Assembly: GCA_946611795.1 (NCBI GenBank)
Contig: CAMOEC010000043.1
Coordinates: 60-64,059, forward strand
Length of the DNA stretch: 64,000 nucleotides
Direction: 5' to 3'
Origin: an uncultured bacterium
GTDB lineage: Bacteria; Patescibacteriota; Gracilibacteria; Absconditabacterales; Absconditicoccaceae
Shown here: piece after piece, positions 12,801-40,728 of the stretch
Position numbering within the stretch: the first letter of the stretch is position 1
Layout of the letters: the number at the start of each line of letters is the position of its first letter
Notes under the pieces: model-generated
Seen by the model: only the letters and a program-made list of their open reading frames with translations
Databases searched by the model: none
What the model was told of the DNA's origin: nothing
Position numbers and translations under genes: made by a program

Positions 12801-12832
12801 GATTTTAAATAGGTTTATATTGGTTAAAAAAT

Positions 12833-13993: not shown

Positions 13994-14061
13994 TTTCAAT
14001 TTGATTTATTATTGCTTAATACTATAAGTTCTTTGAGTTTTATATAATATTCATTCTTACA

Positions 14062-15015: not shown

Positions 15016-15024
15016 TATAAAAAA

Positions 15025-16646: not shown

Positions 16647-16656
16647 TGTGATAATC

Positions 16657-16839: not shown

Positions 16840-16855
16840 GTAGTAGATCTCTATT

Positions 16856-16880
16856 AAAAAACCCTGGTTTTACAGGGTTG
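16856..16880 (-). terminator. rho-independent terminator after tig
   Basis: The minus strand reads aaccctg-taaaac-cagggtt followed by tttttt, immediately downstream of the tig stop (16885-16887). Confidence 0.75.
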
Positions 16881-16884
16881 TTAA

Positions 16885-18156
16885 TTATTTGTCTTCTTTT
16901 TTAGTTGCTTTTTTAGTTGGCTTTTTTGCAGCCTTTGTTTCTTTTTCAGGTAACGCCCCTACAAGTTTTCCGTAAATTTGTTTTTCAACAAATAATGGTT
17001 CTTGATTTTGATCGTTCCAGTTTATATTAAGTCAAAGTAGTTCAGTAATTTTGTTTAGAATAAAGAACTTTTCTAGACTTTCTGCAGCAGCAGATTGAAC
17101 ACCGTCAACAAATTCTTTAGATTTTTCTTCTCCTAATTGAGTGAAATATTCTTTAACTTTATCTTCACTTCCAAATCTGTGTTTTAAGTTATCCATTCTA
17201 ACTTTGAATTCTTGATCAATCATTGTCTTAGGAATAACTACGTTAACTCCTGATTTTCTAACGTCATTAAGATAATTTTCTATAGTTTGAACAAGTTCGT
17301 TTTCTTCTTTTTGATTAACGATTTCTTTTTTGATATATGCTCTTAATTCAGCATTAGTTTTTACCTCAGCATCTTTTCCAAATAATTTTTCAATCATTTT
17401 ATCATTTAGTTCAGGAAGAACTACTTCTTTTACATCTTGAATTGTAATCTTAACTTTTTTAGCTTCACCTTTTTTAGCATGAAGAACTTGTGGTAATTTC
17501 TTTTCATCGTATGCTAATTCTATTACTTCCTTCTTCTTTTTTCCGTTGAATGTTTTTGCCCAAAATTTATCTTCATTAAATTCTGTTTCTCAAAGGTATG
17601 TTGTTCATTTATCAACAGTTTCTCAGTTTTTATCAATAAATTCTAATCCTAATTTTGAGATAGTATTTTTATCTGAAATAGTTTCTGCATCTTTATAGTC
17701 TGCATAATTCTTTTGAATATTCAATAATGAATCTTCAACTTCTTTATCTGTTGCTTCAACTTTTATTTCTTTCATTTTAATACCTTCCCATTTTTTACCA
17801 TCAACTTTTACTTCAGGGTAAACGTCTAAATGGAAAGTAACATTAGTTGTTCATTTGTCTTCTTTTGTTTCATATCCATAAGGTTCACCAATGAATTTAA
17901 TGTCTTTATTTTCTTTTAATATTTCTTGAATTGCATCGTTAATAAGATGTTCAGTAATTGTCATATCGATATATACTGGTTCAATATTCTTTTCAACAAT
18001 ATGCATAGGTACTTTACCAGCTCTGAATCAAGGAATTTTCATATCTTTTGCAAAATGTTCTAACACGTGTCATCTTACTTTTGATTTATCTTCATCTCAA
18101 AAGCTAACAGTGATGATGTAATCACAATTCTTTCCTTCTGTTAATTTTTTATTCAT
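16885..18156 (-). CDS. tig: trigger factor
   Basis: MNKKLTEGKNCDYIITVSFGDEDKSKVRGHVLEHFAKDMKIPGFRAGKVPMHIVEKNIEP... (conserved GFRxGKxP motif). Track ORF 17032-17397 is an in-frame fragment. 424 codons, TAA at 16885-16887. Confidence 0.9.
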
Positions 18157-18226
18157 ATTTTTGAAGTAATAATAAAATTGTATTATTTAGAGTGTAGTTA
18201 TTCTCTTATTCTTTTCAAGTTGATAT

Positions 18227-19243
18227 TTAGAATAGAGGTGTGATAATATTTTTTTCGATATTAGTTGTGTCTGATTTGAATAATAGAGCAGGAATATAGT
18301 ATCCATCTTTTTCAAGGTATATGTATTTTCACTTTATCATTGGTATTGATCATTCTTGTCCTTTTTTTGTTGTATCAATATTTCATTCATTTCATAGTGT
18401 TTCTAATATATCTTTTTTAGTTTTTTGTAGTTGGTATTCAGATAGTTGGTATGATTGAACATCATAGTTTAGAATATTTAATAATATTCATTGTTCTTTA
18501 TCAAATGTTGCGCTGAATCATTCTTGTTTTTTATTTGAGTTCCAAAGCTCTTTATCATCAATAATTCTAGGGTAGAAAAATGTTATTTCTGATGATGATT
18601 CTTCAGTTATTGTTGGATCTCAATAGTATTTTAAGCTGAGTCCTAATTTTGATAATTCTGATTTTATTATTTTCTTTATTTCTTTTTCACTGAATTCTTC
18701 TTCTTGTTCGATATATTCTTCTATTGCATTGAAGATTTCAATCTTTTTATGGTTTAGGTCTATGCTAACATAGTATTTTTGGTCTGCGGTTTCAAATAAG
18801 ATATTCTCAACTTTTCAGGCTTTAAATCATTTTGTTTTTGTATCTGGTAATCTTAAGTATTTTATAAGAGGATTAACTGAAACGTCTTTTGTTTCAAGAT
18901 TTTTCATGATATAGAAACTCTTTTTTAGACTTGGAATTTGGTTCTCTCAAATATGGTAGAGTATTGGATATGCAGAAATAATTGTGCTCTTTATTTTGTT
19001 TCATTTTTTTTCATTTTCTCAGCTTCAGATTTCTCAGAATGCATTATCTTCAAGGTAATTCAATGTCTTAGGGTTACTTAGTAGTTGAGGAGTACTATTA
19101 AAACTAATTATTCACAGTACGAATAGAATTATGAATAATCCTATAGCAAAGCAGAATCCTACAAAATAAAATTTGAAATTTTTTTTATAGTATTGATAGT
19201 ATTGTTTCATAGTTTCATTATTTGTTTTTACTTCTTTAGTCAT
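18227..19243 (-). CDS. hypothetical membrane-anchored protein (338 aa)
   Basis: MTKEVKTNNETMKQYYQYYKKNFKFYFVGFCFAIGLFIILFVLGIISFNS... has one N-terminal TM helix followed by a soluble K/E/Y-rich domain. TAA at 18227-18229. Confidence 0.5.
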
Positions 19244-19307
19244 TCGTTTATTTTTTAGTTAAAAACTATATAGAAACATAATGATGTTAATAGTTTTTTC
19301 AATTCAA

Positions 19308-20171
19308 ACTACTTTGTTCAAATTAGTTCGTCATATGAATCTTGTCTTATTAATATGCTTGATTTCTTGAAGTGCTTTTTTAAATCCTTTTCTATTTCGT
19401 TACTTATTTCATTTGCTTCTTTTAGAGATATATTTTTGTTTTTAAATACGATATGAAAACTGATAAATACTTTACCTCATGATTTATGAGTCTTTAGTTT
19501 ATGAAAACTTTCTATATTAGGATTCTTTAAGATTATTTTTCATATTACTTCATCTTTTTCTATACTTTTATCCATTAATACATCTATTCAATCTTTTATA
19601 ATTCTTATACTTGGGAACATAATGTATATTGCAATTCCTATAGCTATTATTTGGTCTATGGATTGATATCATGTGTATTTTACTAATATCAGTGCAAGTA
19701 TTATTCATGAGTTAGTTAGAAAATCCATAGTGTAGTGTATTAAGTCTGCTTTTATTATTAAGTTGTTTGTCTTTTCAGCTGTCTTTTTCATGAATAATAC
19801 GATGATTCATGTTATTAGGATTGATATTATCATTACAATAATGCTTTCATTTATTCAGTCTATACTATCTCAACGAAGCAATTTTTGTATTGATGAAAAT
19901 ATTATTAGTAATCAAGATACGATAATAATAAATCATTCTATTACGGCAGCTAATCATTCTACTTTTCAATGTCAGTAATTATGTTCTTTATCTGCTGGTT
20001 TTGCTGATTCTTTTAATGCAAAAAGGTTTAATAGAGAAACCATAAAATCTAAAAGTGAATCTGCTGCTGAAGCTAATAATGTCATACTTCAGCTAATGAT
20101 TCAGAATGTGAATTTTATTATTGCCAAAAGAAATGCTCAGATACTTGCTATTTTAACGGCTTTCTTTTCAC
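19308..20171 (-). CDS. cation diffusion facilitator (CDF) family metal efflux transporter
   Basis: GSMTLLASAADSLLDFMVSLLN, PADKEHNYGHGKVEGLAAVIEG, and a C-terminal cytoplasmic domain (GKVFISFHIVF). The nearby ATG at 20178 is out of frame (it hits TAA after 8 codons). The in-frame start is GTG at 20169-20171, preceded by in-frame TAA at 20196-20198. The frame was scanned and TAG lies at 19308-19310. Confidence 0.8.
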
Positions 20172-20203
20172 TATGCATGTGTTGTTTTTATTTTTTTAAA
20201 TTA

Positions 20204-20695
20204 TTATAAGAACATTGCTTCAAGTCCTTTCCATATAGCGAATGAAAAAACTATAACGATAATTCATATGATTGCGTTTTTTATAGCAGTTTTTCAATTA
20301 GATACGTTTCATCAGAAGATTGAGGTTGCGAATTGATATCCAGCGTAAAGTATCATTATACTTCAAATTAGAATTCATAATTGATTAATAAATCTTATTA
20401 CATATGCAACATAACTAAGTAATATATCCCAGTTCATTACACCTGTTTCAAAAGCAAGTCAGATATCTCAGTCATCTAGTATATCTTTTGCCTGTTCATT
20501 GTATCTATCATTTACTGATCTTCCATCGTCATCTCAAACTAATTTTACAATAGAAGCTGCTTTATCATCATAGTCGTTATCTGTTTCTGTTTCTGGAATA
20601 ATATGCAAATAGTTTGATGTATGTTGTGTTGCGTTTGTTGTCAAACTTAGTGAAGATAGTGTAAATACAATTGCTAATAATAAAAATTTTTTCAT
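20204..20695 (-). CDS. T4SS-pilin-like (TrbC/VirB2-like) small secreted membrane protein
   Basis: Signal peptide MKKFLLLAIVFTLSSLSLTTNA, then an acidic spacer. Two C-terminal hydrophobic helices follow: WDILLSYVAYVIRFINQLGILIGSIMILYAGYQFATS...GKTAIKNAIIGIIVIVFSFAIW. This layout is typical of the CPR T4SS_pilin family (Pfam PF18895, from memory). 164 codons. Confidence 0.5.
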
Positions 20696-20717
20696 TGTTG
20701 AGTATTAATAATTTAAA

Positions 20718-21701
20718 TTAGTTACATTTTAATGTTATTTGTTGTATTAATCTTAGTACTCAGAATAAGTAGTTATTTGCTCTTACAGCTGTATTATCTA
20801 CTGTTATACTTCTTGATGTAAGGTAGTTGTTGTAATTTCTTAAATTATTTCGCATAAGAAGATTTGTCTCTGTTGTTATGAATTTAGAATACAATTCTGC
20901 TTTATCTTGTAGAATTTTTTTTATTTTATTAAGACAGTTTTTTTGTATTGTAATTGTGTCTTGATCTGTATCATCAAATCTTCATTGTTTTATTGCTTGA
21001 TATATTCATATCTGGCAAAGATTTTCATATTTTGTTGTTAAATCCCAATCGTTTATTTTTTTGAATTTTTCTACATCATTTATTGTTGTTCATCAATTTT
21101 CTGTTTTTTCAATTTTCCCTGCATATGTTCAAGGACTTGTTCAATCGTAATATGATATCAAATATTTAGGTACTTGTGTTTTTACTTTTCATCTAGTTGA
21201 AAATTCCCAGCATTTATCATTAAGCCAATATTCTTTATATTTACTCTCTAATTTTTGTGGTAAGGCTCAATTTGTATCAGTAGCAAATTCTTCTACTATT
21301 TTTTCCCATTCTGCAGCTTTTTCATCTAGTTCAAGGCCTTCATATGTTTTTGGTCAAAGTCTTCTTAGCATAATATTTATTATATGATCAAGAAAATATT
21401 GAGATTTTGGATAATCTTTTCAAATATCATCAAAGTCTGATTTTTTACATGTTTTATCATTTTTAAGCTCTTCTGTATCAAAACAACAGTATTTTTTTAG
21501 ATTTCTATATGCTCTTACTAGTCCTTTTTCTGTTATTAGTTCATTTCAGTAACTTCATTTAAAGCTTAATTTCATACCTTCTGTAAGTCAATTTTTTAAG
21601 TCTACTCAAGAAACAGCTGCACAATCACTTTTGTATGCAAAACTTATGTTTCAAATGAATAAGAGACTAATGATACTAATTGCAAGGATACTTTTTTTCA
21701 T
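20718..21701 (-). CDS. secreted Cys-containing hypothetical protein (327 aa)
   Basis: MKKSILAISIISLLFIGNISFAYKSDCAAV... has a signal peptide, several Cys (KKYCCFD, DKTCKK, DKCWEF, ENLCQ, KNCLNK, ends LKCN) and no family recognised. It lies 48 nt downstream of the giant ORF and 22 nt upstream of the pilin-like gene. Confidence 0.55.
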
Positions 21702-21749
21702 CTTCTTAATACCGTTAAATGTTATAGAGTTTATATGATAAAACTTGTT

Positions 21750-24700
21750 TTATTCAAGAGGTTTTGCTTTGAAGGTGATACTTGCGATATCATCTCCAAA
21801 GGCTTCATATATTTTGTATGTTATGGTCTCATCAGCTTTATTAAATACGTAATCTCATTGGAGATTTTCTGTTGTATATAGAACTCATGTTGGACCAATA
21901 TACAGTATAACTTTATCATTGTTAAGAATAGCGATACCTCATTCGAATGCTCAATAATTTCATCACTCAAGCTCTATGATCTTTCATTTATAAACTTCTG
22001 TTTTTATTAATTCTTCTGGCTCTATAATGATTTCAAATAGAGGAGTATCTCAATCCATTAGTTTAACAGTAGGATATCATTGTGATAAGTCTACACGAGG
22101 TTTTATGTTTTGAGCATATTCACCTTTTATTTCAATTTCACCGTTTTCTCAATTTACGTTTGCAAATTGTTTATTATCTTTAGTATATAATCAGATATTG
22201 TCTCAGTAATCATAATATTGACCTGTTACTCTAGTTTGATTTGTTGTTACAGGATATGTTTGATTTTCTGTTCATCATTCAGTAGCAGTTATTGGAGTTG
22301 TTTGATTGTTCCTAAATCTTTCAAAACTAACATCTCATTTATCTATATCTGTTTCTAGTTCAGATATTATTGATACTGGACCTTTAATTCATTCTTTATA
22401 TCAATCATTACGAACAATATCTTCTATTGATATTCAAGGAATTTCGATATTTAAATTTATTGTTTCTTCGATGTCATTTCCTTGTGAATCTACAGCATTA
22501 ATTTTATATATTTTAGTTTCTTTTTTCTTGAAGAACAAATCTGGTATAAGTATTATTCCTGTAAATGCATCGAAATCTCTTTCATTTAATACTTTACCTG
22601 TGTTGTTTTCAGAATCTCGTTCTATCAATTTTGTTTCACGTACTTTTGTTTCATCATATCGAGTTATTCTTAGGTTATAATATGTACCAACGTATCATTC
22701 TAAGTCAAATCAATTATCTATAACTTCATTTCCTTTCTTAACTCTTTCTAGTTCAACTGTTGCTTTAGGTGGTTCACCATCACCAACAGCTTGTCTTCAT
22801 CAAACAAGTTGATTAGACCATGGTGCGTTTTGTTGATAGAATTTTCAGTTTAACTTAACGGTTGTTACTTGGATGTATTGCCATTTTCTTGGAACTTCTG
22901 GAAGACTGAATCTTAGTGTTTCATCTGAAGGATTGTAGTATCTTACTTCATAAATCTTGTCTCAGATTAGTTTCTTGATATATTGAGTTCTTCATTGTAA
23001 TTCAATTCATAGGTTTTCAACTTCTTCTTCTGATCCTCTAGGTAAGAATAATATGTATTTAGTATCTTTTTCAGAATTTTTCTCTCGGAATCAGTCAACA
23101 CGTTCTGTCATACGTAGTAAGTATCAACTTGTAGATGCATATTTATCATTATCAAATGATACACTTATTGCATCGTAGTTTTGTCAATGAAGTTCAAAAT
23201 TCTTAATTTCTGCATTTTCGTCATATACTTTTATTTGATTAGAGAATAATCATCCTGCAGCAATATATTGTTTTTGAGAACCTTCTTTTAATGTTGGTTT
23301 AATAACAATTGCGCTTCTACCTTTTGTATTTCATTTCTCAAAGTATTTAACAAATACATTGTTATTATCCCACATTATTAGTTCATTCTTTCAATCTTTA
23401 TCAAGGTCTTTCTCGTAGTATCAAATGAATTTATTGTAGTTGTATTCTGAATTAACAGCACTAATTGTCTTATCTCAATCTTTGATATATATTCATTTTA
23501 CATATTGGCTGTAGTCATTTGTTGAAGCTTCATTCAATGATGGAGTAGTGTTTGTTGCAGCTAATAATGGTTTTTCTACTATTTCTCAATTATTGTCTTG
23601 GAGTATAGTAGTTCATTCGTATTGATTTTTCTTAATACTATATCGTTGGTTAATCTTATCTTTGATTGATGCCATGTATTTCATTGAGTTTTGATATGTC
23701 TCATCACTCATATTTAGCTCACTTGCTGTGTGATTTTTTAGTGCAGAGTAGTATCAATCAACTTTTTTATTTTCTGTTTCAATTAACATTTCTGTTGCGT
23801 TGAATTTTGAAATAGCATTTTCAGCATTTTCGTTTTTATTTAGTAGATTTGTTGATAATGTTAATTGATATGGTTCATCTGATTTCCTATCTTTTATAGA
23901 GTTAAGGAATCAATCATAATCATTCATTGCTAATTCAGCTAATTGATTTACACTATCTTTTTCTTGGCTTATTAGTTTATCAAGATCATTCTTTATTTTA
24001 TTAATTCCTTTTTCATTTTTCTCTACTTTTGTATTTGTTGAAGCAAATGCTAGAACCTCATCAACTCTTTCTTTATCTTTTATATTTAGAAGAGAATCAC
24101 GTAGTTCATAAAGCTGTTCTTTCATTTTTTCAGGTGAGTTTGCTTTTGTTATTTCGGCTTTTAATATAACACTTCTATTAGTTACATTATCAAGATCTTG
24201 GCTGAATTGTGATGTTTCACTATTAAGATAGTCAACTCAATTTTCAGCTTGTTTTAGAAGACTATAAGTTTTTTGATTGATTGGATCAACAATACTCTTT
24301 AATAGACTGTAGAAAGCATCAAAATTATATTGTAAGTTGACATAGCTGTCTACTTCTATGTCTATTCCTTGTAGAGGAGCTTGTTTGAAAAAGAAGGTTA
24401 GGTCTAGGTTATCTACCCGTGGTACTTCATATGATCTTTGAGTCATTTGTTCGATTCTTGCTTTTACAGCACTTTCTCAAACTAATCAAATTCATGATTT
24501 GATAATACAGAATATTTTTGATAGTGTTTTTGCTACACTAAGTAGTCAAGTAATTTGATTTGGTATTTCTGGAATTGTTGGAGCTGGTGGTAAAATAGGA
24601 AGTTCCATTTTTACTTGTGGTATGAATGATGGAAGTTCTGGAAGCTCAGGAGGTTGTGGTAGTTGTGGAATATCTGGAATATCAAAGTCTATATTAAAAT

Positions 24701-27700
24701 CTATACCTAAATCAGGAGGTTGAGGTAGATTAGGTAATCTAGGAAGTTCTATTCATTCTGGTTTGAATGTAAAACGAGGTAATAGAATATCCATTTGTAA
24801 ATTAAAGTTTGATAGGTCAATGTATAGACTCGGTATCTTTACACTTGGTATTGCAATTGTTGGTATTTCAAAAGCACTACAAAGGAAACTTAATTTACAT
24901 GAGTATTGGTCATAAGTATCTTGTGTACATTTTCAGCATTTTGCTCACCAGTCAGCGAACAAATCAATCATTATTTGATATGTTTTTACAATGGTTACAA
25001 TTGTTATAATTGCATCACAATATTGTGAAAATCTATTTGCATTAACTTCCATCCAGTAGTTTATATATCAGAAGAAGTTTCAAATTAATGCTGATATATC
25101 TCACAAATATTTATCTGTTACATGCAGCCATTCATATATTTGTAGTGGGAATCTTTTATATGCTTCAAGTGTTTGTACATTTTGGAATATTTGTGGTCAT
25201 ATCTTTTCAAATTTATTTGAAAGCCTTAGAAGTTTTGATTGAGCTGATTCAACTAGTTGACAATGCTTTGCTTTTTCTGGATTTGTTTTATCTGCTTTTT
25301 TACAGTTTGCTACTGCTGATTCAGCTGTTGCAATCCATCAATTTAGTGTTGTAGAGTTATCTTCATACCATGTTAATAGGTAATTTTTATATGCTTCAAT
25401 ATCTTCGCTATATATCCATGGAACTTTTATTTGAATCCTTTGTGTCCTAATATTTACAAGTTCTGTATTATTGAATAATTCTTGTAAATCTTTGAAAGGG
25501 TTTGCTCCTTCTGCAAGATTTAGTTGTTTTATTTGTTCTTTTGAAATGGTTAAGTCTTTTACAGTTTTCATTGTTTTTTCAATAATTTCTTGTGCCTGTT
25601 TATTTCATTTTGCTGCATTTTTTGCTTGTTCTATTTCTTCTTCGTTGTTTTTCTTACTTTCATTTGTTTGATTCTCTATATTTCTTCATCCTATTTTATT
25701 TATTTCTGTTGATATATATGAAAGATCAGGGAATGTAAACTCGATTTCAAATCTTAGTAAATTGTTTATTCGGTATTGTACTTGTCTATCTATCCAATCA
25801 ACTAGCATTTTTTGAATTCACTGTTGGAGACCTCATAATAGTTTGTTTTTTATATCTTTTGCTCATTGTATTTTTACTCAATTGATTTCAATACCAGTAT
25901 CACCATCACCAAAATTATCAGCATATGATGTTATAGGATCGTAGTTGATGTTAACTAGTCCTCATAAATATGGTCATTCTGCTGGGCTTGTAGGATAGCT
26001 ATTTGAATTTAAGGTATTTGTTGCTACCATTTTAAATGGAGATTCTTTTTCTTGTGGAGTACAGAGATTTGTATCTCAATATTCTCATACCCAATCTTCA
26101 TATGTTTCTCCGTTATCTCAATTTCAATCGTCATCATCTGATAATCCTCATCCTCAAGATGGACAAGGTAATCCAACAGCTGTAACTATACAGTTACCTC
26201 ATATATCAGCTATTGGTGATGGTAGATTTAATCATGCTTGTTGTGGTCATACACATATTGCTATTCAAAGTTGTGCTGTAAGTGTTGGAGCTGCATATAT
26301 TCTAATCATTGAAGGATATGTTCCTCATGGAGCCCGTAAAAAGTCGTCGGCTCCTGATTTCAATCACCATGGAATTGGTATTGGTCAGAATGGTGTTATC
26401 AATGTTCAAGGGAAATGGAACATTGGAAGTCATCTTCATATTGTACGAGTTAATGGTGGTAGAGGAATACATCACATTATGTGATAGTCTCATGGTGCTA
26501 GGAATGCTTGGTTAAATGGTACAGGTAATCATTCACAAGTTTGACTTCATCATTCTGTTCAGAATGTGAATCCATGACATAGACTATTTGCAAATTTTTG
26601 TAGATTTGTTTCAATTTTTTTTAAGTCTACTCACATGATATTTGTTATATCAACATCAATTGTTCATAGATTTATTCAGTTGTTGCTTAGTATTTTTCAC
26701 CGAGCATCTTTTAATATGTCGTTTACAGTAAATTTTTCGTTTACGGATTTAAGGATAGTTGATCATTCAGTTCAATTTTTTTCAGCATTTGCTATATCAT
26801 TATTTATATTATTATTTGCTTCATCATTTTTTGCTTGTGCTCATTGTGCGTATTTGTTTGCTAATTCTTGAAGATCTACTATTTTTGAATTATAAGCTCT
26901 GTTTTTATTAATCTTTGCATTTTCTAAGACTTCTTCTTTTTTAATACATCAATCAACTGGTTGTACAATAATACTTGGAAGATTATCTGTTGTTGGATTT
27001 CAGTTTAAGTCTTTGTATGTTAGATTGTATTTATATTCAAAAACATATTCATCACCTTCTTTTTTTGGTTCAATTTCTGTGATGTTAAAGTCATATCATT
27101 TAATTCAGCTTTTTAATTTTCAGCTTCATTTTGTAATACTAAAATTACTTGGAGTTCATGATTCACGCCATGGTCATTTAATATCTTCTAGAATAGCATT
27201 AAGATGTACATGACTTTTTGGTAGAGGAATTCTTACAGTAACTTCAACTGTATCTCAGTTATCAAGGCTTCATCAATTCAAATCTTTATAATTTTTCTCC
27301 ATAGCGTATACTTCTTTTGAGCTTGTACGGTCTATATATTCTCAAATGTCATTTAAATTGATATATGCTTGTTCTGCATTATTTAATCAGTCATTTATTT
27401 TGAATCGTGTTCCGAATGGATTCTTAATTAAAATGTCTTTATTTTTTTCTTCGTATTTTAATCCATTCCAATTTATTATTGTTATATCTTCTTCTTCCGC
27501 ATTTTTCACTGTTATAGCTGTTTGTGGTTTTTCTCTAACAATTTTTACTCTATAAACAGGATCTTCTAAACGGTATTTCAATGTGTATTTGAATTGTAAT
27601 GCACCTCATCCTACTATTCAAGAACTTCATTTTCAATTAATAATTCCAAAATCATATCATGCTGTTCATTGTATGATTTCTCAAGTTCAAATTGTGAATT

Positions 27701-30700
27701 TTAAGTCTTTTGGTGCTCATGTTGCTGGATTACGATCTATTATCCATGGTCATGAGATTTTATCAAAATATTCTGATAGGTGTACTCAGTTCGTTGTTAT
27801 TGTAACTGTTACTTCTACTTCATCTCAATCTTCAAGGTCTCATCAATTCTTGTCTCTGAATGTTTTTGATGGTTTATTGATCTTTTTTGTATTAGTTAAT
27901 CCATTATATTTTTCAACATTGTAAGCACTTATAAATGCTATATTTTCATCATTAAGTTTATCAAGGTATTTTCATACAAAAGGATTTTTAACGTATACGC
28001 TTGCAGCTTCAGATGCTTTTTGTGCTTGTTCTGTTGTGTTGATCTCGCTTGAAAGTGCTATAATTTTTTCTATTTCACTTTTATCTATATTTCAACTTTT
28101 TAATTTTTCTAGGTATGCAGGATCAATATATATTCATTGTTTTTCAAGATCAGTTTGTTGTTTATTAGGGTCTAGTTTTCAATTAATTACTTCATTATTT
28201 AATTCATTGTTTCAAGGATAATTTAGTCAATCCCATCTTAGAATACTGTCGTCTGCTATTCATGCTGTATCAAGCTTTATTCAGAATTTTTTTACAATTT
28301 TAGTAGATCATTCTTGTCTTTGGTATCGATTTTTATCACAGTCGTAAACATCTTTACTTAGGTAGCTATGTGTTGACTTTGTTCCGTTTCAGTAAACTAT
28401 TTTAAGATATCATTGTTTATCAAGAGTTATTAAGTCAGATCTTCAGTCATTATCCATGTCTTCAACAAAGAGTTGTATTACTCATGATAAGTCTTCTGGA
28501 TTAGAACTAGTTTCTCATGATTTTGAATTTGTATTCAAACATACAATATTTCAGTCAACATCGAATACTCAATCTGAATTAGTATATGCTCTTATCTGAT
28601 TCTTTCAGTTTTTTATAATTATGTCTTCAAAAGTATTTCAGTCTACATCTCAAACAAATATTTCATTGATTTGTTCTGCTGTTAGCATAAGTGTTCATAA
28701 GTCTTCGTATTTGCTGTTGTTGTATTGTTTTAGTAAATTTATACTTCAGTCTCTGTATACTACTAATAAGTCTCTTAGTCCGTCTCAATTGTAGTCAATA
28801 TCAGTTACTTTAAATATTGATTTTGATGGTTCTGAGTATTTAACTTGTCATAATCATCTTTTTGATGCAACTTCATCTCTATTCTTTAATAATGGATCTC
28901 ATATATTAATTAAGAATTCTGAACCAAATGGAATAGTTGATTCTCATACGCTTTCTCATTCAGCGAATAATGTGATATTTTTGAAGTCAGCTCTAAATCA
29001 TATGTATTTGTTTAATTCATCACTGTTTTGAATTGAGTCATATCATTGATAACTGTTTTCTAGAGTGTTAATTGTTGATTGAAGAGCCTTAACTTTTGAT
29101 GATGTTGTTCATCTATCAAAAATTTCTCATAGTTCATATCATATTCCTTCTATTTTTCAATTAATTTTAGAATAATCAATGTTAGCTATTATTGCGCTTG
29201 CTAGTATTTGTCATTTATAAGTTACATCCCAAATAGGATTTAATCATAATTTATATTTTGATAGTTCAAATGTTACTCAATTTCTTACATCAGCATATTT
29301 TTCTCATCATTCTGTTTTGAATATTCATCATTCGTATGTGTAAGAATCGTTTATATCAAAAAGATATATAACATTTGAAGTATCATTTTTAATTGAGTTT
29401 TCTAATCGCTCATTAGATACATCACTTTTTATAGCTGTAATTTTATTTATATTATCGGTTACTGTAAAATCTCAAACATCACCAACATTAATTTTTAGTT
29501 GACTATTTCATAGAGTTGCTGTTATGTTTAATCCTCATAAATTTTGTATATTTCATTTTTTTCCAAATATTATTGCTGATTCTCTTATTTTAGAAGGGGA
29601 GATTAATTGTGTTGTAACAGCAAGTGTTTTAGATGATTTTTGAATAATATTTTCTGCAAACTTTTTGTTATCGGAATAGTATCACCATTGATTTCATCGG
29701 TCATTTCAGAAAATGTTAAGATACATTATATTTAGTCATGATTCAATGGCTCAATTTAAGAAGAAGTTCTTTACTGTAAATCTTTTTGATCCAATGATTT
29801 TTCAATCACTTGAGCTGACTGTTATTTTATGAAGTCATGCATCTTCTTCTGTTGTTGGTATTGTGAATTTTCGACTTCCTTTACTTATTGTTGGGTTTTC
29901 TGATGGTTGAACTTTATTTTTTGTAGTGGTTTTAGCTATTACTGTTGCTGATTTTTCTACTTTATTTCACCATTCATCAGTTAATTCAACTTCTCATTTA
30001 ATTGTGTCTTTAGGATATATTGTATCATTTTCAAGGTTGATACCAATCTTTTTCATTTCTCCTGGTTCTATTTTTAGTTTTACTTTTTTATCATCTAATC
30101 ATGGTACTGTTACTGTAATCTCATCTTCTCAAGCTTTGTATCATGGAACAACATAAACTGTTTTTTCTCAGTTTTCAATCATTAGAGAATTGGTCTCTCT
30201 TAATTTTATCTTTTTATTGTTTTGTGCGTCTCTTGTTTCTTCGGCAACCATTATTTTTGCTAGTTTATTTTTTGATCCGAAAGAAGCGTTTGATGTGATT
30301 CTTACTATTTGTCATCAATATTTAAGAGATATCTTTAATGGAATAGCTTTTTTTGTGTTTATGCTTCAATCAGCATTGTAATATTTTTCGTTTGATATTT
30401 GGTATTTTATGTCTTCTTGATCTTTGTCGTTTAGTTTTATTTCTCAAGGGAAGATGTTAATAGTGTTTTTTCACATAACATTTCATTTTGAATCTTCAAC
30501 AGTTATAGTTACGGTTCCTTTAGATCATTTTTCTGCTCTATATAACATTGTTAAATTTTGGAAATCATTTACTTCTTGTGTTGTATTTGATGTTCCATTT
30601 ATATAGAGTGTTCATTTGTTAACTTTTACATAGTATTTTTCTAGAGTCCTTAATATTTCATTTTGTTTACTATCAAGTGCTTTTATTTTTAGTAGAGTAT

Positions 30701-33700
30701 ACGCTCAAGCGAGAACTTTATTTTCTGTAGCAGTTTCTATGTTAAATGATTTAACAGGTCAAGGCACTACTGATAAAGCCATATTCCTTACTCAACAGTT
30801 ATCTGCTGTAGAACATAATGATATATTTGCCATTACATTTCATATTGTTGTTTTTCCAAGAGTATAGTTAACAGAGAATCATTTCTTGTAAGGATTATTG
30901 TTTATCACTGCTGGTCAAGAACATGTATTTGTTCAATTAATTATAAGACAGTTATCTCATGTTGATTGAATCTTTACGATAATGTTTCATAAATCTTCAA
31001 ATGATAGAAAATTAAGACTTCAAGTCCTTCATGATACATTTACTTTTATATCATTCCAAGTAATTTGAGTGTTTGTTAAAATTGCTTGAGTTCTTTGGCT
31101 TAAGTTTTCACTGCTTTGTGGTGTGTCTTCAAATCATTCAATCGTTGTTGAAAAACTCTTTTTATAATCATCCCAACTTTGTTCAAGAGGTTCTGTTATA
31201 CTTGAAATTGTTGGACTTGTTTGGAAATATACTTTTACAGTTACTGGTTTTTTTGCGACAGCTTTAAGCCAGCAGGCGAGTCATTGAAACCATGATCCAT
31301 CGAATAGTGATAGTGATTCATTTGGGTCATATCAACAATCTTTTTTAATATCTTGAGATGCCTCATCGTCTGATGGGCTATCTTCATATCATATTTCTGA
31401 TATATCTTCTGTTGCTGTGGCACTTCTTGTTGCAGCTATTCATCCTTTTAATACGGTGTCTATATCATCGTTTTCTGCTGATATATTATCTGCTCAATTT
31501 GAATTGATGTATCATACTTCATATCATCAAGTATTATATGAAGGAATAACTAATCAGGCAAAACTCTTTCTTTCTCATTTTATGTTCTTTCATTCTATCT
31601 TTTCTCATCTAAGTATTTTATCATTATCTTCTTTTAGATATTCGGTCATGATATATCCAATCTTTTTGTTGATGTCGAATGATTGTCTAGTTTCGTCTAT
31701 ATCTTTTCATATGTTATCGTGGTATTCTCTTGAGTTAATAGCAACACTTTGATAGTAGAGTATTTCTGCTATTGTATATAGCATTTCTTCTCATCATATT
31801 GCTTTAATAATTTCATCGTAAGTAAAGTATTTGTATGGACGAATATTTTTATCTGGTGTTGCTAATTTATCTACTCTTCGAATGTATTTGTAGTATTGGT
31901 TGTCCATTGATTTAGCACTATTGTATTCATTTCTTAATATCGTGTTGTATTCGTCAACTTTGCTCTCGAAATATTTTTGTAGGGCTTTGTAAATTTCATT
32001 TTTACTGTTTTCAGGATCTGTCTTTTTAAGTTTAATATTATTTCATTCTGATTTATAAACTTCTACTTTAAATATATCTGGGTAGATAAGTTTTATAGTA
32101 TGTTCTCATATTCATTGGAAACTTATGTATCTTGGTGAGTCTATTGGTCTATCTTGTGTTAATAGATTCATTCATGGTTTCTTTTCTTTAGGATTGTTTG
32201 GATCTGCATTGAAATATTTTTGGAATACTGTTTTTGATGTTTGTAGTTCTTTAACTAAGTTAGTGATTACATCATCAGCAGATCATTCTCATCAGTTATT
32301 TCATTCATTTTCTTCGCAAGAATCTGTTTCTTCTCAGTAATGTATAGTATCATGATCTGCTTCTATGATGTTTCCAAGTACACTGTGATTTGCTGTACAT
32401 TTTTCAATAATGTTTAATCAGTTTTCTACTCTTGATTCTATTTGTGGCAGTTGTGTTTTTAGTGATTCCCATGCTGATTTTGTAGCTTTTGCTTCTTGTA
32501 TTATTTTCTTATTTTCATCAATTTTTTCATTGTTTTCTTTGATTTTTTCATCGTTTTCTTTGATTGTATCGTTATTTGCTCTGATTTGATCACTATCTTC
32601 TACAGGATCTAAACCTGCATTTTCTATTCTTAATGACATGTTCTCTGATCATAAGTTGCTATTTTCTGTTTCTAAATTTGTATTTTCATTGGTTTTGTCA
32701 TCTATTATTTTTTGTACTTCATTAATTTTTTCTTCAATTTTATTTTTTACTCTTTCTATGGCACTGAAGATATTGTTATAGCTTTGGAATATCCCTTTTG
32801 CGACTGGTCTTTTATTTTCAAGGTCTCTAGCGACTGAATCTATTTTTGAAATTATTTCTATGTACCATTTGCTTCGTATATCTATTGGTTCATCAAGGTT
32901 AATTTGATGTTGATGGAATCCTTCAGCATAGTTTTCAACCATTGCTCCGTAATTATTTCAGAAAATTGCATTGAATTTGTTCCAATTATCTTTTTGTCAG
33001 TTGGTTTTTTCTGTTATTGTGTTTAATGCAGTTGATAATATTGTATCTAATCATTTTATTCAACTTAAAATTGTTCATATATTCGCTCATATTGAATAAT
33101 TCGTCGTATTATTAACTTGTTGTCAGAAATTGTAAATTGTATTTTGAACTTCTATCATACTTGAATTTACTTTTTCTGAATATGAATCGTCTGTTGATGC
33201 ATCAAGTGCTTTCATAATACTTTTATAGTAGCTGTATGTCTCTGATGTCTCGTCATATCTATATCAAGAATGCCCATTTATTTGAAGCTCTGTTGTTGCA
33301 TCATGTTTTATGATAGATGGTATTATTCTATAGATGTATGTTAATTCTTCATCTGTACTACTTCTTTTTTCTTTTTTAATTGTGAATTGTGAATCACTAT
33401 TTTTTTTGAAATTTTGATCGTTTATTAATGATGTTGGAAGTCTAAAATATCGGGCGTTAGTATATGCTGTATGATAATCAGTTCTTATTAAATTACCTCA
33501 TTTATCTGCCATGAGAATTGGTGATATGTATTCTGTTTGTGCTTCGTAACTTGTTGCTTTTGGCTGTGCACTTTTTAGCTTTACAGATCATGCTATATCG
33601 AAAATTGGTTTTATTGCATTTTTGTAATTGTATTCTCATGCAAATTGATAAATTTGGTCTTGGTATTTTTTCATGTCTAAGTTTAGAGGAGTACCTCCTC

Positions 33701-35375
33701 CCCAAACTCTGTTTCCAAAGTCTATAAATGTTTCACAATCTGCTATTTGGCTTGGTTCTTCTGATCATGTTATACATGTTCAGTCTGGTTCCCATACTCT
33801 TTCCCTACATCAAAATATTGATATTCAGAACCAATATCTTCAACATTCTTCATTAAGTCTTGCATGTCTTTTTTCATTATTATATGTTTGATATTCAGTT
33901 TCCATGTTAAGAATATTGAATCATCTGTTTGCTTCTACTTGTGTTGAAAATAAATCATATGATGATCATATTCATTTTTTAGTAAGGTCAGTACTTTCAT
34001 ATTTTGTTTTTGCTGGGTTTATACTATCATTTATAATTGTTGAATAATTTACAAAATTATTAAGGTTTCTGTATGTTCCTCTATAAATACTGAAATCTTG
34101 AGGATCTGATATCGTGCTCGCATTTTTTCAGAAATAATAGAATTCATATGTGTCTTTGTATTCTGGAACATAACGTTTTATAAAAAAGAACCTTTTTCTT
34201 TTATCTCTCCATCTTTGATAGTAGATAGGGATAGTTAGCTTCATATCATATTTTTCAGTATATACTTTATTGTCGACATATTGTTCTAATTTATCATTTA
34301 TACTTTTGAAAATTCAGTTTGCATCTTCATTTCATAGCAATAATTGATCTTTTAGTTGTATTTTTTGATAATGACTGTCGTTTACTGTCCACCTGTCTGA
34401 AGCTTTTATGTTATCATCAACTGTTTTGAGAAGCGTTGTACTTATTGCTTCATGATAGTCTTTTAGGAATGATGATAATTTATTCTCAAGTAAAAGGGTA
34501 GGAGTAAATTCTGTTTTATTTTTTAATAGATTTTCTTTTGCCGTTTCAACAACGGGAATATGAACATTAACTGCTGCTAGTGTATCTTGTAATTCTCATA
34601 GTAAGTCAGCGTTTTCATCTTGTTGATTTAATTGAAGCATGTCGACAAGAAAATTTGTGTAGCGATGATATATTAGGTCTTCTGCAAATATCATCTTGTT
34701 CTTGTATAGTTGGTATGTCTCTCATAGAAAATTCTTTCCTAGTGCAATAAAGTCATCATACCATATTTTTTTCTCAACAAATTTTTTAGGATTATTATTG
34801 TATTTTTTTAATTTTTCGAAAAAATCATTATATTTTCCTGCATCATCAAGACTTATTATTCAGTGCCAAATTTCTGATTCTCCATTTGATTTGTTTTGAA
34901 TGAAATATCATTCTGATTCATTCCATATATATTTTTGATCAATGAAGTCTGTATAAGGATAAATTGATGGAAAAATATAGTTTTTGTATTTTACTACTGG
35001 AAGTGGTATATCTCACATTACTATTGTTCATATTAGGCGAGATGCACTTCATTTAAGTCAATCAAAGTATACGTTTTCAAGTAATTTTACTATTTCTGGT
35101 GCGTTGTATTCATTTGTGTTTAATGAAAATATAACTGCATTACTTCCTGGATATTTTTCTGGAATGTATTCGTCTGTGTATCGTTTGAAATTAGAATTTC
35201 AGCTTATTGAGTTATAGGTATTATTATCTATTAGTATTGCTACTAATGGATTTGTTGAATTTCATGATGTGGCTGCTTCAGCAACATTCCGGTTAACATA
35301 TCCTAGGTGTGATAATATATCCGCTCCAAGATACACTCCGAGAATTATCGATCATAAAATTTTTTTTATTTTCAT
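21750..35375 (-). CDS. giant secreted/surface protein, 4541 aa, single ORF under code 25
   Basis: ATG at 35373-35375, preceded by in-frame TAA at 35376-35378. My triplet-by-triplet scan of this minus-strand frame down to TAA at 21750-21752 found only TGA, with no TAA/TAG. Seven track fragments share this frame and each ends at TGA: 22434-22628, 23910-24125, 24237-24446, 25338-25571, 27387-27581, 32418-32639, 32649-32942. The N-terminus MKIKKILGSIILGVYLGADILSHLGYV resembles a signal anchor. Internal features are coiled-coil stretches, a Pro-rich (L/I)P segment and hydrophobic/Cys-containing segments. No family recognised. Confidence 0.75.
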
Positions 35376-36314: not shown

Positions 36315-38900
36315 TTATTTAAGTAGTGAATTGATGATTTTTGGTTCAACTTCATCGTTGATATATCTTTCTATTGGTCTTGCTCCGAATGCAGGATCAT
36401 AGATTTTATCTATAATTTTTGTTACTTCAGCTTTAGTAAATTTAGGCAATTGTACTTGATTGTTTTCTTTTCGGGCTTCTAAGAATTTCTTAATTTGGTT
36501 GTTAAATATTTCTGTTAAGTTTTCTTTGCTTAATGGTCTGAATACAATTTTGTGATCAATTCTGTTTGATAATTCTGGTGTTATGTGGTTTTTTAATTCT
36601 TCAAGAACTCTTGTTTTGATGTCGTTAAATTGTTTTGAATCAACATCTTCTTTTGTTCATGTATCAAATCAAATTGTTGTTTTCTTTTTACTAAATTCTT
36701 CTGTTCAGATGTTTGATGTCATAACAATTATTGTATTTTTGAAGTCGATTCGTCTTCATTTAGAATCCTTTAATTGTCCTTCATCTAGAATTTGAAGAAG
36801 AATATTTAATACATCTGGAGCAGCTTTTTCTATTTCATCTAAAAGAATAACAGAGTATGGTTTTCTTTTTACAGCTTCTGTTAATCATCCTCATTCATCA
36901 TATCCAACATATCCTGCAGGAGATCAAATTAGTTTTGAAACAGAGAATTTTTCCATGTATTCAGACATGTCAAATCTTATCATTGCTGTTTCATCTCAGA
37001 AATAGTTTTTAGCAATTAGTTTTGCTAAATAAGTTTTTCAAACTCATGATGGTCCTAAGAATAGGAATGATCATATTGGTTTGTCTTTTTTTATTACTGA
37101 TAATCTGCTTCTGATAAGTGTTTTCACTATTGTGTCTACAGCATCGTTTTGTCAGATGATTTCTTTTTTTAATTCGCTATCTAATCTTTTTAGTTTTGTT
37201 ATTTCATCTTCATTAACTATATTTGTTGGAATTCATGTTTTATCTGCTAGTACGTTTCCAATATCTTCTGGTTCGATAACACTTCTAAGGTGTTGTGGAA
37301 TATTCTTATTTGATCTAATTTTTTGTAGTTCTTTTTTTAATGCTTGTTCTTCTTCTTTTAGTTCAGCAGCTGAGAAATAATCTTGATTTTCAATAGCTTT
37401 TTCTATCTCTTTATTAATTTCTTCAATTCTTGCCTCTTGTTTTTTATATGTGTCATCATTGTCTAGTTTGTGTTGAACAGTTGATTTTCTTGCGCTTGCT
37501 TCATCAAGAATATCTAGAGCTTTATCAGGTAGTTGTTTGTTAAGAATATATCTTTTTGATAGGGTAATAGCTTTATCTATAGCTTCATCAGAAATAACAA
37601 CTCAGTGATAATCTTCGTAAGTTGCTTTTAATCACATAATAATTTTTTTTGTCATTTCTACTGTTGGTTCGTTTACAACAACTTCTTGAAATCTTCTTTT
37701 TAGGGCTGCATCCTTTTCGATGTATTTTTGATATTCATCAAAAGTTGTAGCTCATATTAATTTAATCTTTCATCTTGAAAGCAGTGGTTTTAGCATTTGA
37801 GCTGCATCGTTTTGGTCTTGTCATCAAGCTCATATTATTGTATGTAGCTCGTCGATAAAGAGGATAATGTTATTTGTTGGGTCCATTGCTTCTTCAAGAA
37901 TTGATTTCATTCTTGATTCAAATTCACCTCTATATTTAGTTCAAGCTACTAGTGTTCCCATATCTAGTAAAAATACTTTTTTGTTTTGTAGTTTTTCTGG
38001 TACTTCTTTTGCATTAATTCTTTGTACTAATCATTCTACTATTGCAGTTTTTCAAACTCAAGCTTCTCATATGAGTAGAGGATTGTTTTTTGTTTTTCTG
38101 AGTAATGTATATATCACTTGGTCGATTTCTTTTTCTCTTCAAATAACTGGATCAAGGTATCCATCACGTGCTTCTTTTGTTAAATCTGTTCAGAAGTATT
38201 CTATTGTTAGTTTCTTTTCGTCTTTTTTCTTTGGTTTACTAGAATCTGTTTCTAAAGAAATATTATCGTTATCTTCTTTTTCAACGATTTCGCTTTCTAA
38301 GTTATCAAGTAAGTTGTTTATTGATCAATTTTTGTTTGTAATGTGCATCTTTTTTATATCTCTATAATCTAAATTGAGTTCGTTGATAAGAGTATCTATA
38401 ATTTCTAAAAATGCAAGGAAACCAACCTCTTTAAGCATTGGTGAATTTGACAATTCGTGAATTGAGTCTCTGACTGATTTACAATTTATATTATCGAGTT
38501 TAAATAGTTGTTTTAATTCTTTTGACATATCACTGAATCATGCTTCTAGAATTTTAATAATATCTCGTTTTTCTCCTTTTTTAATGTCGTATTTATTTAG
38601 TACTTTTTCAAATTTTTCGTCGAACTGTATTTTTCATTTTCAGATTCCTAGTTGGTCATAATCTATTTCTATGACTTGTTGATTGATATAATTAATGTAG
38701 CTAGATATTTTGCTTCTATTGTTGATTCATAATACTGCAAAAAAGGCATCTGAATGCTCAAAGCTTTCAGCATTATAGAATGTTGCTAGGATAATATCAT
38801 CTCATTTTACTCCATTTAAATCTTCAAGTACTGAGTATTTCTCAGCATCTCTTAGGATTTTTTGGACGTCTGTTGTACAATTTTTTATCTGTGGTTTCAT
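36315..38900 (-). CDS. clpC: ATP-dependent Clp chaperone ClpC/ClpB-type, two AAA+ modules
   Basis: NBD1 has NNPLLIGEAGVGKTAIVEGL and [15 protein letters not shown] short middle region carries a UVR-like [23 protein letters not shown]2 has [30 protein letters not shown] and GARPIERYI. Track ORF 38325-38528 is an in-frame fragment. 862 codons, TAA at 36315-36317. Confidence 0.9.
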
Positions 38901-40125: not shown

Positions 40126-40728
40126 TTACCATCTTTTTCGTGATGGACATGCTTGTTGGATATTTATATGAGAAAATCATTGATGTTGAAGTGCATCTTT
40201 TATCGTATCTTTCATTAATTTAAGGTCATTTCATTGAACTGATTTTACAAATGAGCATCATGCAGTTTCAACTAGATTGATTGGATGTAGTGGTGGTAGT
40301 GAATTTCATTCTGGTGTTGATTTTGTTTTTACTCCCAGTGGTGTAGTTGCTGATGCTTGTCATGTAGTTAGAGCATAGTTTTCATTATCACACGTTATGT
40401 GTAGTATTTGGATATTTCTTCTGGCTGCATGTATGAGGTGTCCTATTCAGATTCAATAGGTGTCTCAGTCTCATGAAAGAGATATAACTGTTAATTTTGG
40501 ATTTGCTAGTTTAACTCAAATTGCAAATGGAATTCCTCTTCAATGAAGTGTTTCTGCTCAATATCATTCAAGATATTGGCTCATTTTACTATTACATCAA
40601 ATTCCAGTTACAATAACAGTGTCTTTTAGTGGTATTTCTAGTTCAGTTAGTGCTTGTTTGATTGCTATGTGTACTAAGTAGTTTCAACATCAAGGACATC
40701 GTTGAATTTTATTGGTATTATGTCTCAT
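40126..40728 (-). CDS. 2-oxoacid:ferredoxin oxidoreductase, beta (TPP-binding) subunit
   Basis: MRHNTNKIQRCPGCGNYLV..., LSGDGDTYGIGIGHLIHAARRN (GDGD TPP motif), ILHITCDNENYALTTGQ. 201 codons, TAA at 40126-40128. Confidence 0.85.

Follow-up and report, generated by a model that had tools for sequence, protein, structure and literature searches.

A 13.6-kb gene with reassigned codons in an SR1/Absconditabacteria bacterium encodes a giant modular protein with a probable role in host contact

Papers on cultivated SR1/Absconditabacteria and Gracilibacteria, which attach to and feed on other bacteria, point to giant surface proteins without defining them. Vampirococcus lugosii has ten giant proteins of 1,392–4,163 aa, the longest of which, VAMP_16_20, is called a ‘hypothetical protein’ (PMC8080830), and Strigamonas methylophilicida has proteins of >1,500 aa with adhesion domains (PMC13059738). 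For giant membrane proteins of both organisms that carry integrin, DUF11 and fibronectin domains, a role in recognising and attaching to the host has been proposed (PMC8080830, PMC13059738). A VCBS repeat protein has also been detected in Gracilibacteria metaproteomes. Here we analyse a gene for a protein of 4,541 residues (the giant), which lies on the minus strand at positions 21750–35375 of a 64,000-nt stretch of contig CAMOEC010000043.1 (the window). By description only, the giant can be likened to the Vampirococcus and Strigamonas proteins in lineage, genetic code, size class, membrane or signal targeting, and the presence of integrin/FG-GAP and (putative in the giant) DUF11-type modules. 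Those papers, however, list giant proteins without defining a family, its four modules, its breadth or the gene cassette described below.

Outside this lineage, the giant resembles the invasin/intimin-type and FG-GAP/VCBS giant adhesins (FdeC, for example), which are long, modular extracellular proteins with immunoglobulin-like (Ig-like) arrays, putative in the giant, and FG-GAP/VCBS repeats. The RTX adhesins LapA and SiiE are giant adhesins with Ig-like arrays and Ca-binding repeats. Unlike the invasin and RTX adhesins, the giant lacks a β-barrel anchor, an RTX/type I secretion system (T1SS) signal and an LPxTG motif, and its N-terminal domain (N-domain), Pro/Cys-rich block and core have no counterpart there. 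Gli349 and Gli521 of Mycoplasma mobile, the ‘leg’ and ‘gear’ proteins of gliding, are surface proteins of 3–4.7 thousand residues from a reduced genome, with N-terminal anchoring and mostly no known domains. The comparison with the giant is an analogy only: UGA is reassigned in both organisms but means Trp in M. mobile, and the function there is gliding. Finally, very large genes, obscured by assembly or annotation, have been reported in ultra-small, putatively predatory Omnitrophota (bioRxiv 10.1101/2023.11.21.568195). These belong to a different phylum and encode far larger proteins with a proposed cell-wall-degrading role.

The interval 21750–35375 holds one genuine and uninterrupted gene, 13.6 kb long, from an SR1/Absconditabacteria bacterium. 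Read as its reverse complement (13,626 nt), the interval has 4,541 sense codons, of which the first is the ATG at 35375, and then a TAA stop; another TAA lies in frame immediately 5′ of the ATG. This frame contains 252 TGA codons and no internal TAA or TAG. The five remaining frames of the interval have 81–363 TAA/TAG each (~5% per codon), and from this rate the probability of so long an open run arising by chance is ~1e-102. In 20 shuffles of the whole window, the longest TAA/TAG-free run was 253 codons. Read with the standard code, the open reading frame (ORF) would fall apart into 253 fragments (median 10 aa), the longest TGA-free one being 108 aa. Ten minus-strand ORFs of ≥60 aa were found in the interval; seven are in the frame of the giant and all of these are stopped by TGA, and the other three are out of frame and end at TAA or TAG. 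The gene takes up 21.3% of the window, and its product is rich in Ile, Lys, Asn and Glu, with 5.2% Tyr. A preliminary description of this DNA, made from its letters, had proposed a single ORF of 4,541 aa with an upstream TAA and no internal TAA/TAG, covering ~21 percent of the window and hidden as more than 100 standard-code fragments, with seven sizeable ones in the same frame ending at TGA. Our recount agrees with each of these figures, and a recheck of the frame for an overlooked TAA or TAG found none.

TGA is glycine in this genome (code 25). The window has a G+C content of 29%, with in-frame TGA in essentially every long ORF. In the ClpC gene next to the giant (36315–38900; E = 1e-162 against ClpC of solved structure), both ATPase modules have TGA at the invariant glycines of Walker A (lower case in LIgEAgVgKT and GPSgVgKT). 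The Gly codons of the giant gene itself comprise 80 GGN and 252 TGA, and reading TGA as Trp would result in a protein with 6.3% Trp and 1.8% Gly. When the giant was aligned over its full length with 17 orthologs, its TGA columns contained GGN 1,210 times, TGA 706 times and TGG twice. TGA and GGA were also swapped, in both directions, between the giant gene and that of a 97%-identical strain. The open frame, the orthologs and the code evidence agree with the preliminary view that this is one gene, meaningful only with TGA recoded.

CGA and CGG behave as Trp, not Arg, in this genome, as judged from alignments, and both are reported to be decoded as Trp in Absconditabacterales (PMC13092985). At 38 conserved-Trp columns from 18 genomes, the codons were TGG or CGA/CGG, with other Arg codons only as isolated cases. 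The 18 CGA/CGG codons of the giant aligned with TGG or CGA/CGG in 42% of cells and with other Arg codons in 3.8%. CGT, CGC and AGR codons aligned to Arg or Lys, and to TGG in <1% of cells. Among other genes of the window, OFOR-beta (40126–40728) has a CGA opposite the Trp of WCPGCG in three solved structures and a second CGA that aligns with Tyr or Phe, and SufB (9897–11276) has a CGA opposite a Trp of E. coli SufB. Some CGA sites (in QueA and ClpC, for example) are at variable positions and thus uninformative. ARAGORN found no tRNA or tmRNA genes in the 64-kb window. The lesson for annotation is that table 25, too, gives 18 wrong residues in the giant, since CGA and CGG mean Trp here; the preliminary advice to use this table was right for TGA and, with the table alone, wrong at those residues.

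In one ortholog, from a metagenome-assembled genome labelled ‘Candidatus Peribacteria’ (L019), we counted 213 in-frame TGA and found CGA at conserved Trp columns. Its genome therefore uses the same altered code as the window, and the label or the assumed code of this and other ‘Candidatus Peribacteria’ records (P0004/P0027) may need checking.

The giant has complete orthologs in related species. Two Gly-free peptide patterns, both taken from the conserved core, were scanned against species-representative genomes and gave 20 loci, nearly all labelled SR1, Absconditabacteria or Patescibacteria. The best was the human oral taxon HOT-345. The organism that carries the gene is a mammal-associated SR1/Absconditabacteria bacterium, as expected from the earlier assignment of the DNA to a code-25 bacterium within the Candidate Phyla Radiation (CPR). 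Complete loci (17 in number) each consist of one TAA/TAG-free ORF of 3,649–4,871 aa with 38–263 in-frame TGA. Length and colinearity across related genomes, which the preliminary description had named as a check, thus gave uninterrupted, colinear ORFs in 17 SR1 species. The 17 proteins align end-to-end with the giant at 29.5–46.3% identity, with 281 invariant columns that are enriched in P, G, Y, D and C; 17 Cys are invariant among the SR1 orthologs.

A much closer relative was found on a ‘WOLF17’ metagenome scaffold (L023), which has the same downstream gene order and is 97.3% identical over the last 5 kb of the gene (L023:1–5033 compared with window positions 21750–26793). The two copies differ by 81 synonymous and 26 non-synonymous changes, and therefore the giant gene is under purifying selection. 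The only differences that break the frame, an N run and a 13-nt deletion, are both in L023. The deletion is flanked by a short ATAC repeat and lies inside the invariant motif CT-DTYDQYSC, which is kept in the window and in all other orthologs. As the deletion takes out part of an otherwise invariant motif, the window copy is the intact one, and L023 has either been misassembled here or carries a pseudogene peculiar to that strain.

Could the giant nevertheless not be one functional gene, but an assembly artefact, a pseudogene, or adjacent genes that share a frame by chance? Broken relatives do exist: one is spread over three frames (L001), another is divided into 1,118 + 3,082 aa (L022), and the near-identical L023 has its 13-nt deletion. 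Set against these are the chance probability of the open frame given above, the uninterrupted colinear ORFs in 17 species together with hundreds of full-length representatives, purifying selection, a conserved start with a signal sequence, and the retention in the window of the invariant motif that L023 lacks. The frame is supported by its end-to-end colinearity with 17 complete orthologs and by the 97.3%-identical strain, and we regard the artefact explanation as extremely improbable. An origin as a phage- or plasmid-borne tail-fibre or adhesin gene was also rejected, as aa 2935–3704 had no tblastn match among 50,697 phage and 72,556 plasmid records and the chromosomal context is conserved.

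To gauge the breadth of the family, the core profile was used in an exhaustive HMMER search of public protein collections, with clustering at 50% identity. At E ≤ 1e-3 this gave 599 representative clusters, Gracilibacteria included, and at the stricter E ≤ 1e-30 it gave 335. The best matches were mostly full-length proteins (3,500–6,066 aa), in all of which the core kept its relative position. Many of the clusters are code-4 mistranslations (Trp 4–8%, Gly 1–3%), and ~50 have a normal composition. Four colinear modules (N-domain, FG-GAP, Pro/Cys block and core) were present, in the same order, in 62–66 of 66 correctly translated members. In the ~50 GC-richer, correctly translated members the modules again recurred in order, and the stretches between them varied. 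By its four colinear modules, the giant belongs to a family of predicted SR1/Gracilibacteria envelope proteins of 3.5–6 thousand residues.

In the public record, these relatives are named ‘hypothetical protein’, ‘VCBS repeat-containing protein [Candidatus Gracilibacteria bacterium]’ or ‘uncharacterized repeat protein (TIGR01451 family)’ (NCBI, JGI). A word-indexed protein search returned only fragments of 170–640 aa, all ‘hypothetical protein’, even on long contigs, and on one JGI contig (L024; JGI 3300008634) the ortholog is broken into ~20 small ORFs. The preliminary description had called the gene hidden. This holds for code-11 gene calls such as that one, but not more generally: hundreds of full-length relatives are already public, many of them with Trp for Gly.

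We noted two kinds of miscall among the public records (L024, L001, P0002/P0003 and many of P0104–P0244), namely tiny code-11 ORFs, by the dozen, and full-length code-4 translations with Trp for Gly (Trp 4–8%). Both degrade homology searches and structure prediction that is based on multiple sequence alignments. On an 862-kb contig (L022, ERZ25039527), a distant ortholog at 10001–22553 is called as two genes (1,118 and 3,082 aa) that overlap by ~50 nt, which may be a frameshift or a real split; a gene for an SLH-domain protein comes after it, and a PilB-type ATPase gene before it.

The modules of the giant and the two genes downstream are listed in Table 1.

Table 1. Positions of the giant gene, of the regions of its product and of the two genes downstream (window coordinates).
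Feature	Position	Strand	Remarks
Giant coding sequence	21750..35375	minus	4,541 codons + TAA; 252 TGA = Gly; 18 CGA/CGG = Trp
Predicted signal sequence/signal anchor, aa 1–35 (MKIKK, hydrophobic segment, VAEA|A)	35271..35375	minus	conserved in orthologs
Conserved N-terminal α/β domain, aa 44–250	34626..35246	minus	conservation peak; in 62 of 66 correctly translated members
β-rich Ig-like array (Big/invasin-type), aa 1440–1900	29676..31058	minus	putative, from weak matches and the distant member P0161
FG-GAP/VCBS-type repeats, aa 2105–2345	28341..29063	minus	Pfam FG-GAP_3; integrin-α-like, Asp-rich loops of Ca-binding type
Two DUF11-like β-sandwich modules, aa 2496–2602 and 2686–2790	27006..27890	minus	duplicate pair; DUF11 sub-threshold in P0161
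Pro/Gly/Cys-rich hydrophobic block, aa 2935–3075	26151..26573	minus	most conserved block; no known family
Family-defining core, aa 3290–3710	24246..25508	minus	in 66 of 66 members; profile retrieves 599 clusters
Conserved β-rich C-terminal region, aa 3950–4541	21753..23528	minus	no SLH, LPxTG or RTX
Partner 1, 327-aa secreted Cys-rich protein	20718..21701	minus	48 nt after the stop of the giant; no known family
Partner 2, 163-aa protein, VirB2/T4SS_pilin-like	20204..20695	minus	signal peptide and two C-terminal hydrophobic helices (by inspection)

Conservation peaked at aa 100–250, 2100–2350, 2950–3050 and 3400–3700. Above threshold, Pfam recognised only FG-GAP_3 in the giant and in two orthologs, and NCBIfam contributed nothing beyond a FusH stretch across FG-GAP, which is spurious. 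The match to FG-GAP_3 (E = 4.6e-12; 46.8 bits, cut-off 26.9) comprised two stretches, the better at aa 2194–2253 (28617–28796). FG-GAP_3 was also found in seven of eight other family members scanned (the exception being P0242), and it was the only match in the Gracilibacteria member P0155. The region, which is not claimed to form a complete seven-bladed propeller, is present in 64 of the 66 correctly translated members.

The Ig-like and DUF11-like modules emerged mainly through relatives. Pfam Big_1 matched aa 1789–1863 of the giant weakly (E = 0.14; 12.7 bits, cut-off 34.9), and a profile of the orthologs over this region matched, again weakly, the Ig module of an S-layer protein (4uid, E = 0.011) and FdeC (E = 0.14) in the PDB. 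In the distant member P0161, the equivalent region matched Invasin_D3 at 41.7 bits (cut-off 33) and three copies of Glyco_hydro2_C5 at 83.8 bits (cut-off 32). Pfam DUF11 did not match the giant itself; P0161 scored 21.2 bits at the equivalent position (cut-off 24.6), and JGI calls relatives ‘TIGR01451 family’. The two DUF11-like modules (27570–27890 and 27006–27320) resemble each other, with a pairwise local score of 158 compared to 30 ± 5 for shuffles (z ~24). BLAST found no internal repeats in the giant at E < 1e-3. Over aa 2620–2790, where the second copy lies, the occupancy by orthologs is 0.06–0.3, which marks this copy as an insertion or duplication specific to this genome, and the duplication may reflect recent remodelling of the binding part. 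The preliminary description had recognised no motif in this protein. This needs some correction, as FG-GAP_3 is significant, and Ig-like and DUF11-like modules can be traced through relatives.

At the N-terminus, the hydrophobic part of the predicted signal is the only strongly hydrophobic segment conserved across the orthologs, as the earlier mention of a signal-anchor-like N-terminus would suggest. The N-domain that follows has the signature residues S137, P-Y-x-D-F (140–144), E-x-W-H-G (168–172), K188 and R238. It belongs to no known family: there was no Pfam or NCBIfam match, and nothing significant in a profile search of the PDB. A model of the domain, built on the N-terminal fragment P0098 with only 6 sequences, had a predicted local distance difference test (pLDDT) score of 37.7. 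This low-confidence model was Rossmann-like, with generic flavodoxin-like matches only, and Foldseek gave no significant fold match in the PDB. We considered and rejected a gingipain/peptidase C25-like N-domain: the Foldseek match to 1cvr reached only E = 0.3 on this model, Pfam and NCBIfam had no match, and H171-G172 is conserved yet there is no conserved Cys for a His/Cys dyad.

The Pro/Cys block has the pattern PVPFNQAFLAP...YPSMIRIYAAPTLTAQ...AIC...GNC and gave no confident model. What distinguishes the core is its long helices, together with a cluster of Cys (CGKC...DTYDQYSC) and a ladder of prolines that is invariant (LPxLPxPP...LPELPSFIP...LPILPPAP). In the AlphaFold model of a homologous fragment (P0001; pLDDT 59.7), only the core was confident, with one helix of ~95 residues. 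The core had no match in the PDB by fold or by sequence profile, and no relative in Pfam. Searches of PDB sequences with a profile of the middle region and with the C-terminal ~590 aa found nothing significant. LPxTG and RTX (GGxGxD) motifs are absent anywhere in the giant, as is a C-terminal hydrophobic segment. We thus rejected a sortase-anchored (LPxTG) or RTX/T1SS adhesin, given that neither motif nor a hydrophobic C-terminal tail is present.

The N-domain, the Pro/Cys block and the core bear on the possibility that the giant is an exported enzyme, a toxin or a device that penetrates the host envelope, either with a catalytic N-domain or with the Pro/Gly block and long helices inserting into, or remodelling, the host envelope. 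The conserved N-domain residues S137, D143, E168, H171, K188 and R238 are polar and, with them, aromatic ones are conserved; gingipain R is among the weak fold matches (probability score 0.77, E = 0.3); and the very long helices of the core gave sub-threshold matches to long-helix fusion proteins such as HA2 (E 0.3–0.9). The giant genes of predatory Omnitrophota have also been linked to degradation of the prey cell wall (bioRxiv 10.1101/2023.11.21.568195). None of these matches is significant, however, and those of the HA2 type are typical coiled-coil noise. The N-domain has no conserved Cys, its model is of the low quality given above, and the giant has no Pfam peptidase, hydrolase or toxin match. 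We therefore consider a role of this kind very unlikely.

How the protein is held at the cell can be approached through its distant relatives. In the distant members scanned, Pfam found Invasin_D3, Glyco_hydro2_C5/Big_1, FG-GAP, DUF11 (sub-threshold) and bacterial TSP3 repeats. A C-terminal S-layer homology (SLH) domain was present in five of five distant GC-richer members scanned (P0161, P0182, P0211, P0228 and P0242), at up to 71.5 bits, and a family-specific SLH profile was positive in 47 members, with the domain at ~91% of the length. Thus, the family would consist of envelope-attached giants of the adhesin/invasin type, with one branch wall-anchored by SLH. SLH was absent from the giant (by Pfam and by the family-specific profile), from its 17 SR1 orthologs and from all Trp-mistranslated members of the code-25 lineage, even at E ≤ 10, and therefore this branch would have to be anchored differently. 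The likeness to SLH-anchored, S-layer-associated proteins of monoderm bacteria is accordingly one shared through the 47 members, whereas the giant and the members of the code-25 lineage are without the domain.

We propose that the giant is probably a Sec-exported, envelope-attached modular protein that mediates contact with a host or prey cell. Its N-terminal signal sequence would direct it into the Sec pathway for export, and the protein would then stay on the cell envelope, kept there by an uncleaved anchor at its N-terminus or by partner proteins. Along the chain, the α/β N-domain would be followed by a helical region, the Ig-like array, the integrin-like FG-GAP repeats, the DUF11-like modules, the core region and the β-rich C-terminus. 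Most likely, the whole would form a fibre or scaffold at the cell surface, able to recognise a host or prey bacterium's envelope and hold it, with the Ig-like, FG-GAP and DUF11 modules as binding and reach elements and the disulfide- and proline-rich helical core as a rigid stalk or assembly module. It probably works with the two small exported proteins encoded downstream, of which the first is Cys-rich and the second VirB2-like. We suggest a role in host contact because of the analogies offered by adhesins of the invasin/intimin and FG-GAP/VCBS types and by giant membrane proteins described from predatory Absconditabacteria. The preliminary description had proposed a cell-surface or host-interaction structure. 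Its envelope or surface part is supported by the signal sequence, the 17 invariant Cys, FG-GAP, and the Invasin_D3, Ig-like and SLH domains of relatives; surface location in this branch, host binding and partnership with the neighbours, like export, are what we infer.

The same domains could instead belong to a structural scaffold of the envelope or S-layer, which would organise the wall or S-layer, space the envelope or stack cells, with the Ig-like and FG-GAP modules as spacers. SLH in the 47 distant members would fit such a role, as would the SLH-protein gene that adjoins the L022 ortholog and the S-layer protein that is the best weak PDB sequence match of the Ig-like region. The deep conservation of the four modules (62–66 of 66) fits a housekeeping structure better than a fast-evolving adhesin, and the authors of the Vampirococcus study tie giant proteins to a fibrous cell surface (PMC8080830). 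On the other hand, the branch of the giant has no SLH, a single-copy protein of 4.5 thousand residues is an unlikely lattice former, and modules such as FG-GAP, invasin and DUF11 typically occur in adhesins. Between the modules lie variable regions, which, like the lineage-specific duplication, suggest adaptation of a binding surface. On balance we think a purely structural scaffold unlikely, while giving it more weight than the other alternatives to host contact.

The two genes downstream raise another alternative. The giant is followed after 48 nt by the Cys-rich gene and, after a further 22 nt, by the 163-aa gene, with no terminator-like site between them. The Cys-rich partner, which has no Pfam match, lies directly downstream, on the strand of the giant, in 11 loci and, by inspection, in L012 too; the 163-aa protein is conserved downstream in 10 loci. 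The latter matched PF18895 (T4SS_pilin) at E = 8.9e-5 and 22.9 bits, below the cut-off of 26.6. Four of its five orthologs matched in the same region, also sub-threshold (17.8, 24.9, 23.4 and 26.5 bits), and the fifth had no match. VirB4, VirB6 and VirD4 were not seen among the scanned ORFs of the window and the flanks examined.

From this cassette, the giant could be read as the contact or adhesin component of a CPR type IV secretion system (T4SS)-like apparatus (monoderm, conjugation-type) or of a pilus, in a PrgB-type role with VirB2-like and Cys-rich partners. The order giant, Cys-rich gene, PF18895-like gene is conserved in 10–11 genomes, the PF18895 matches of the 163-aa protein and four of five orthologs are consistent (17.8–26.5 bits), and the window contains a second pilin-like ORF. 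A study of type IV secretion in CPR bacteria found VirB2-like pilins to be widespread and reported no PrgB-like adhesin, which leaves room for such a component. Compared with known T4SS adhesin and pilin components (PrgB; VirB2/PF18895), however, the locus has a PF18895-like gene two genes downstream of the giant but only sub-threshold pilin scores, every one below the gathering cut-off, and no T4SS ATPase or channel genes nearby (none of VirB4, VirB6 or VirD4 in the window or the flanks examined). The cassette is also absent from a deeper SR1 branch, and the family of the giant is far wider than the cassette. A part in a T4SS-like machine therefore seems to us quite unlikely.

The second pilin-like ORF is at 62857–63363 on the minus strand; it encodes another small protein with a signal peptide and two hydrophobic helices, and scored 25.1 bits against T4SS_pilin (cut-off 26.6). 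The genome would therefore hold several VirB2-like genes.

Several observations weigh against the giant being a host-contact protein, the reading we prefer. About 90% of it, including the N-domain, the Pro/Cys block and the core, corresponds to no Pfam, NCBIfam or PDB family. It is exactly the conserved parts that are without known function; this speaks most strongly against a simple adhesin, and what is conserved may be some function other than adhesion. Four modules deeply conserved over hundreds of clusters are unusual for host-specific adhesins, which usually diverge fast. Nor is the wall anchor of distant relatives, SLH, found in this branch. With regard to the partners, the pilin-like assignment of the 163-aa neighbour is sub-threshold, and the cassette is missing in a deeper SR1 branch (L015, L020 and L021), where dnaB comes after the giant instead.

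In a bolder reading, the conserved unannotated modules would define an envelope machine of a new kind, shared by Gracilibacteria, Absconditabacteria and their relatives. It would be a device for host contact or feeding, maybe the missing T4SS-like adhesin or contact element, or a structure that penetrates the host envelope, and Ig, FG-GAP and DUF11 would be only its variable reach-and-bind part. We offer this as a speculation with rather little chance of being right, and still favour a modular, envelope-attached protein for contact with host or prey.

Other ORFs of the window were noted in passing. Those taken as genes between ~16885 and 42789 are all on the minus strand, in one long co-directional block. 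The minus strand carries a second giant ORF at 45177–54113 (2,978 aa, 273 TGA), which has a signal peptide and PKD domains (PKD_4, E = 3e-14). It also has Asp-rich TSP3-like stretches and ~60 tandem Cys-rich ‘CGNG..E.GE.CD.G.NG’ repeats (Cys 9.6%, Gly 11.7%), and is another surface protein, unrelated to the first giant. This repeat ORF accounts for the strongly negative GC skew at 46–52 kb. On the plus strand at 2189–4807, an ORF of 872 aa has AEEAKK and TQSTATQA in long tandem arrays and, after them, hydrophobic segments, with no meaningful Pfam match.

Giant surface proteins of this lineage are already published (PMC8080830, PMC13059738), as are both codon reassignments. To judge from the searchable literature, the new elements are the definition of the large colinear family, its four unannotated conserved modules, its SLH and SLH-less branches, and the SR1-specific three-gene cassette. 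The finding is solid and useful, yet would not be very surprising to a CPR specialist. Its use lies in the giant gene being a clean, complete example of a large family (at least 599 clusters at 50% identity), and thus a concrete candidate for host-contact experiments.

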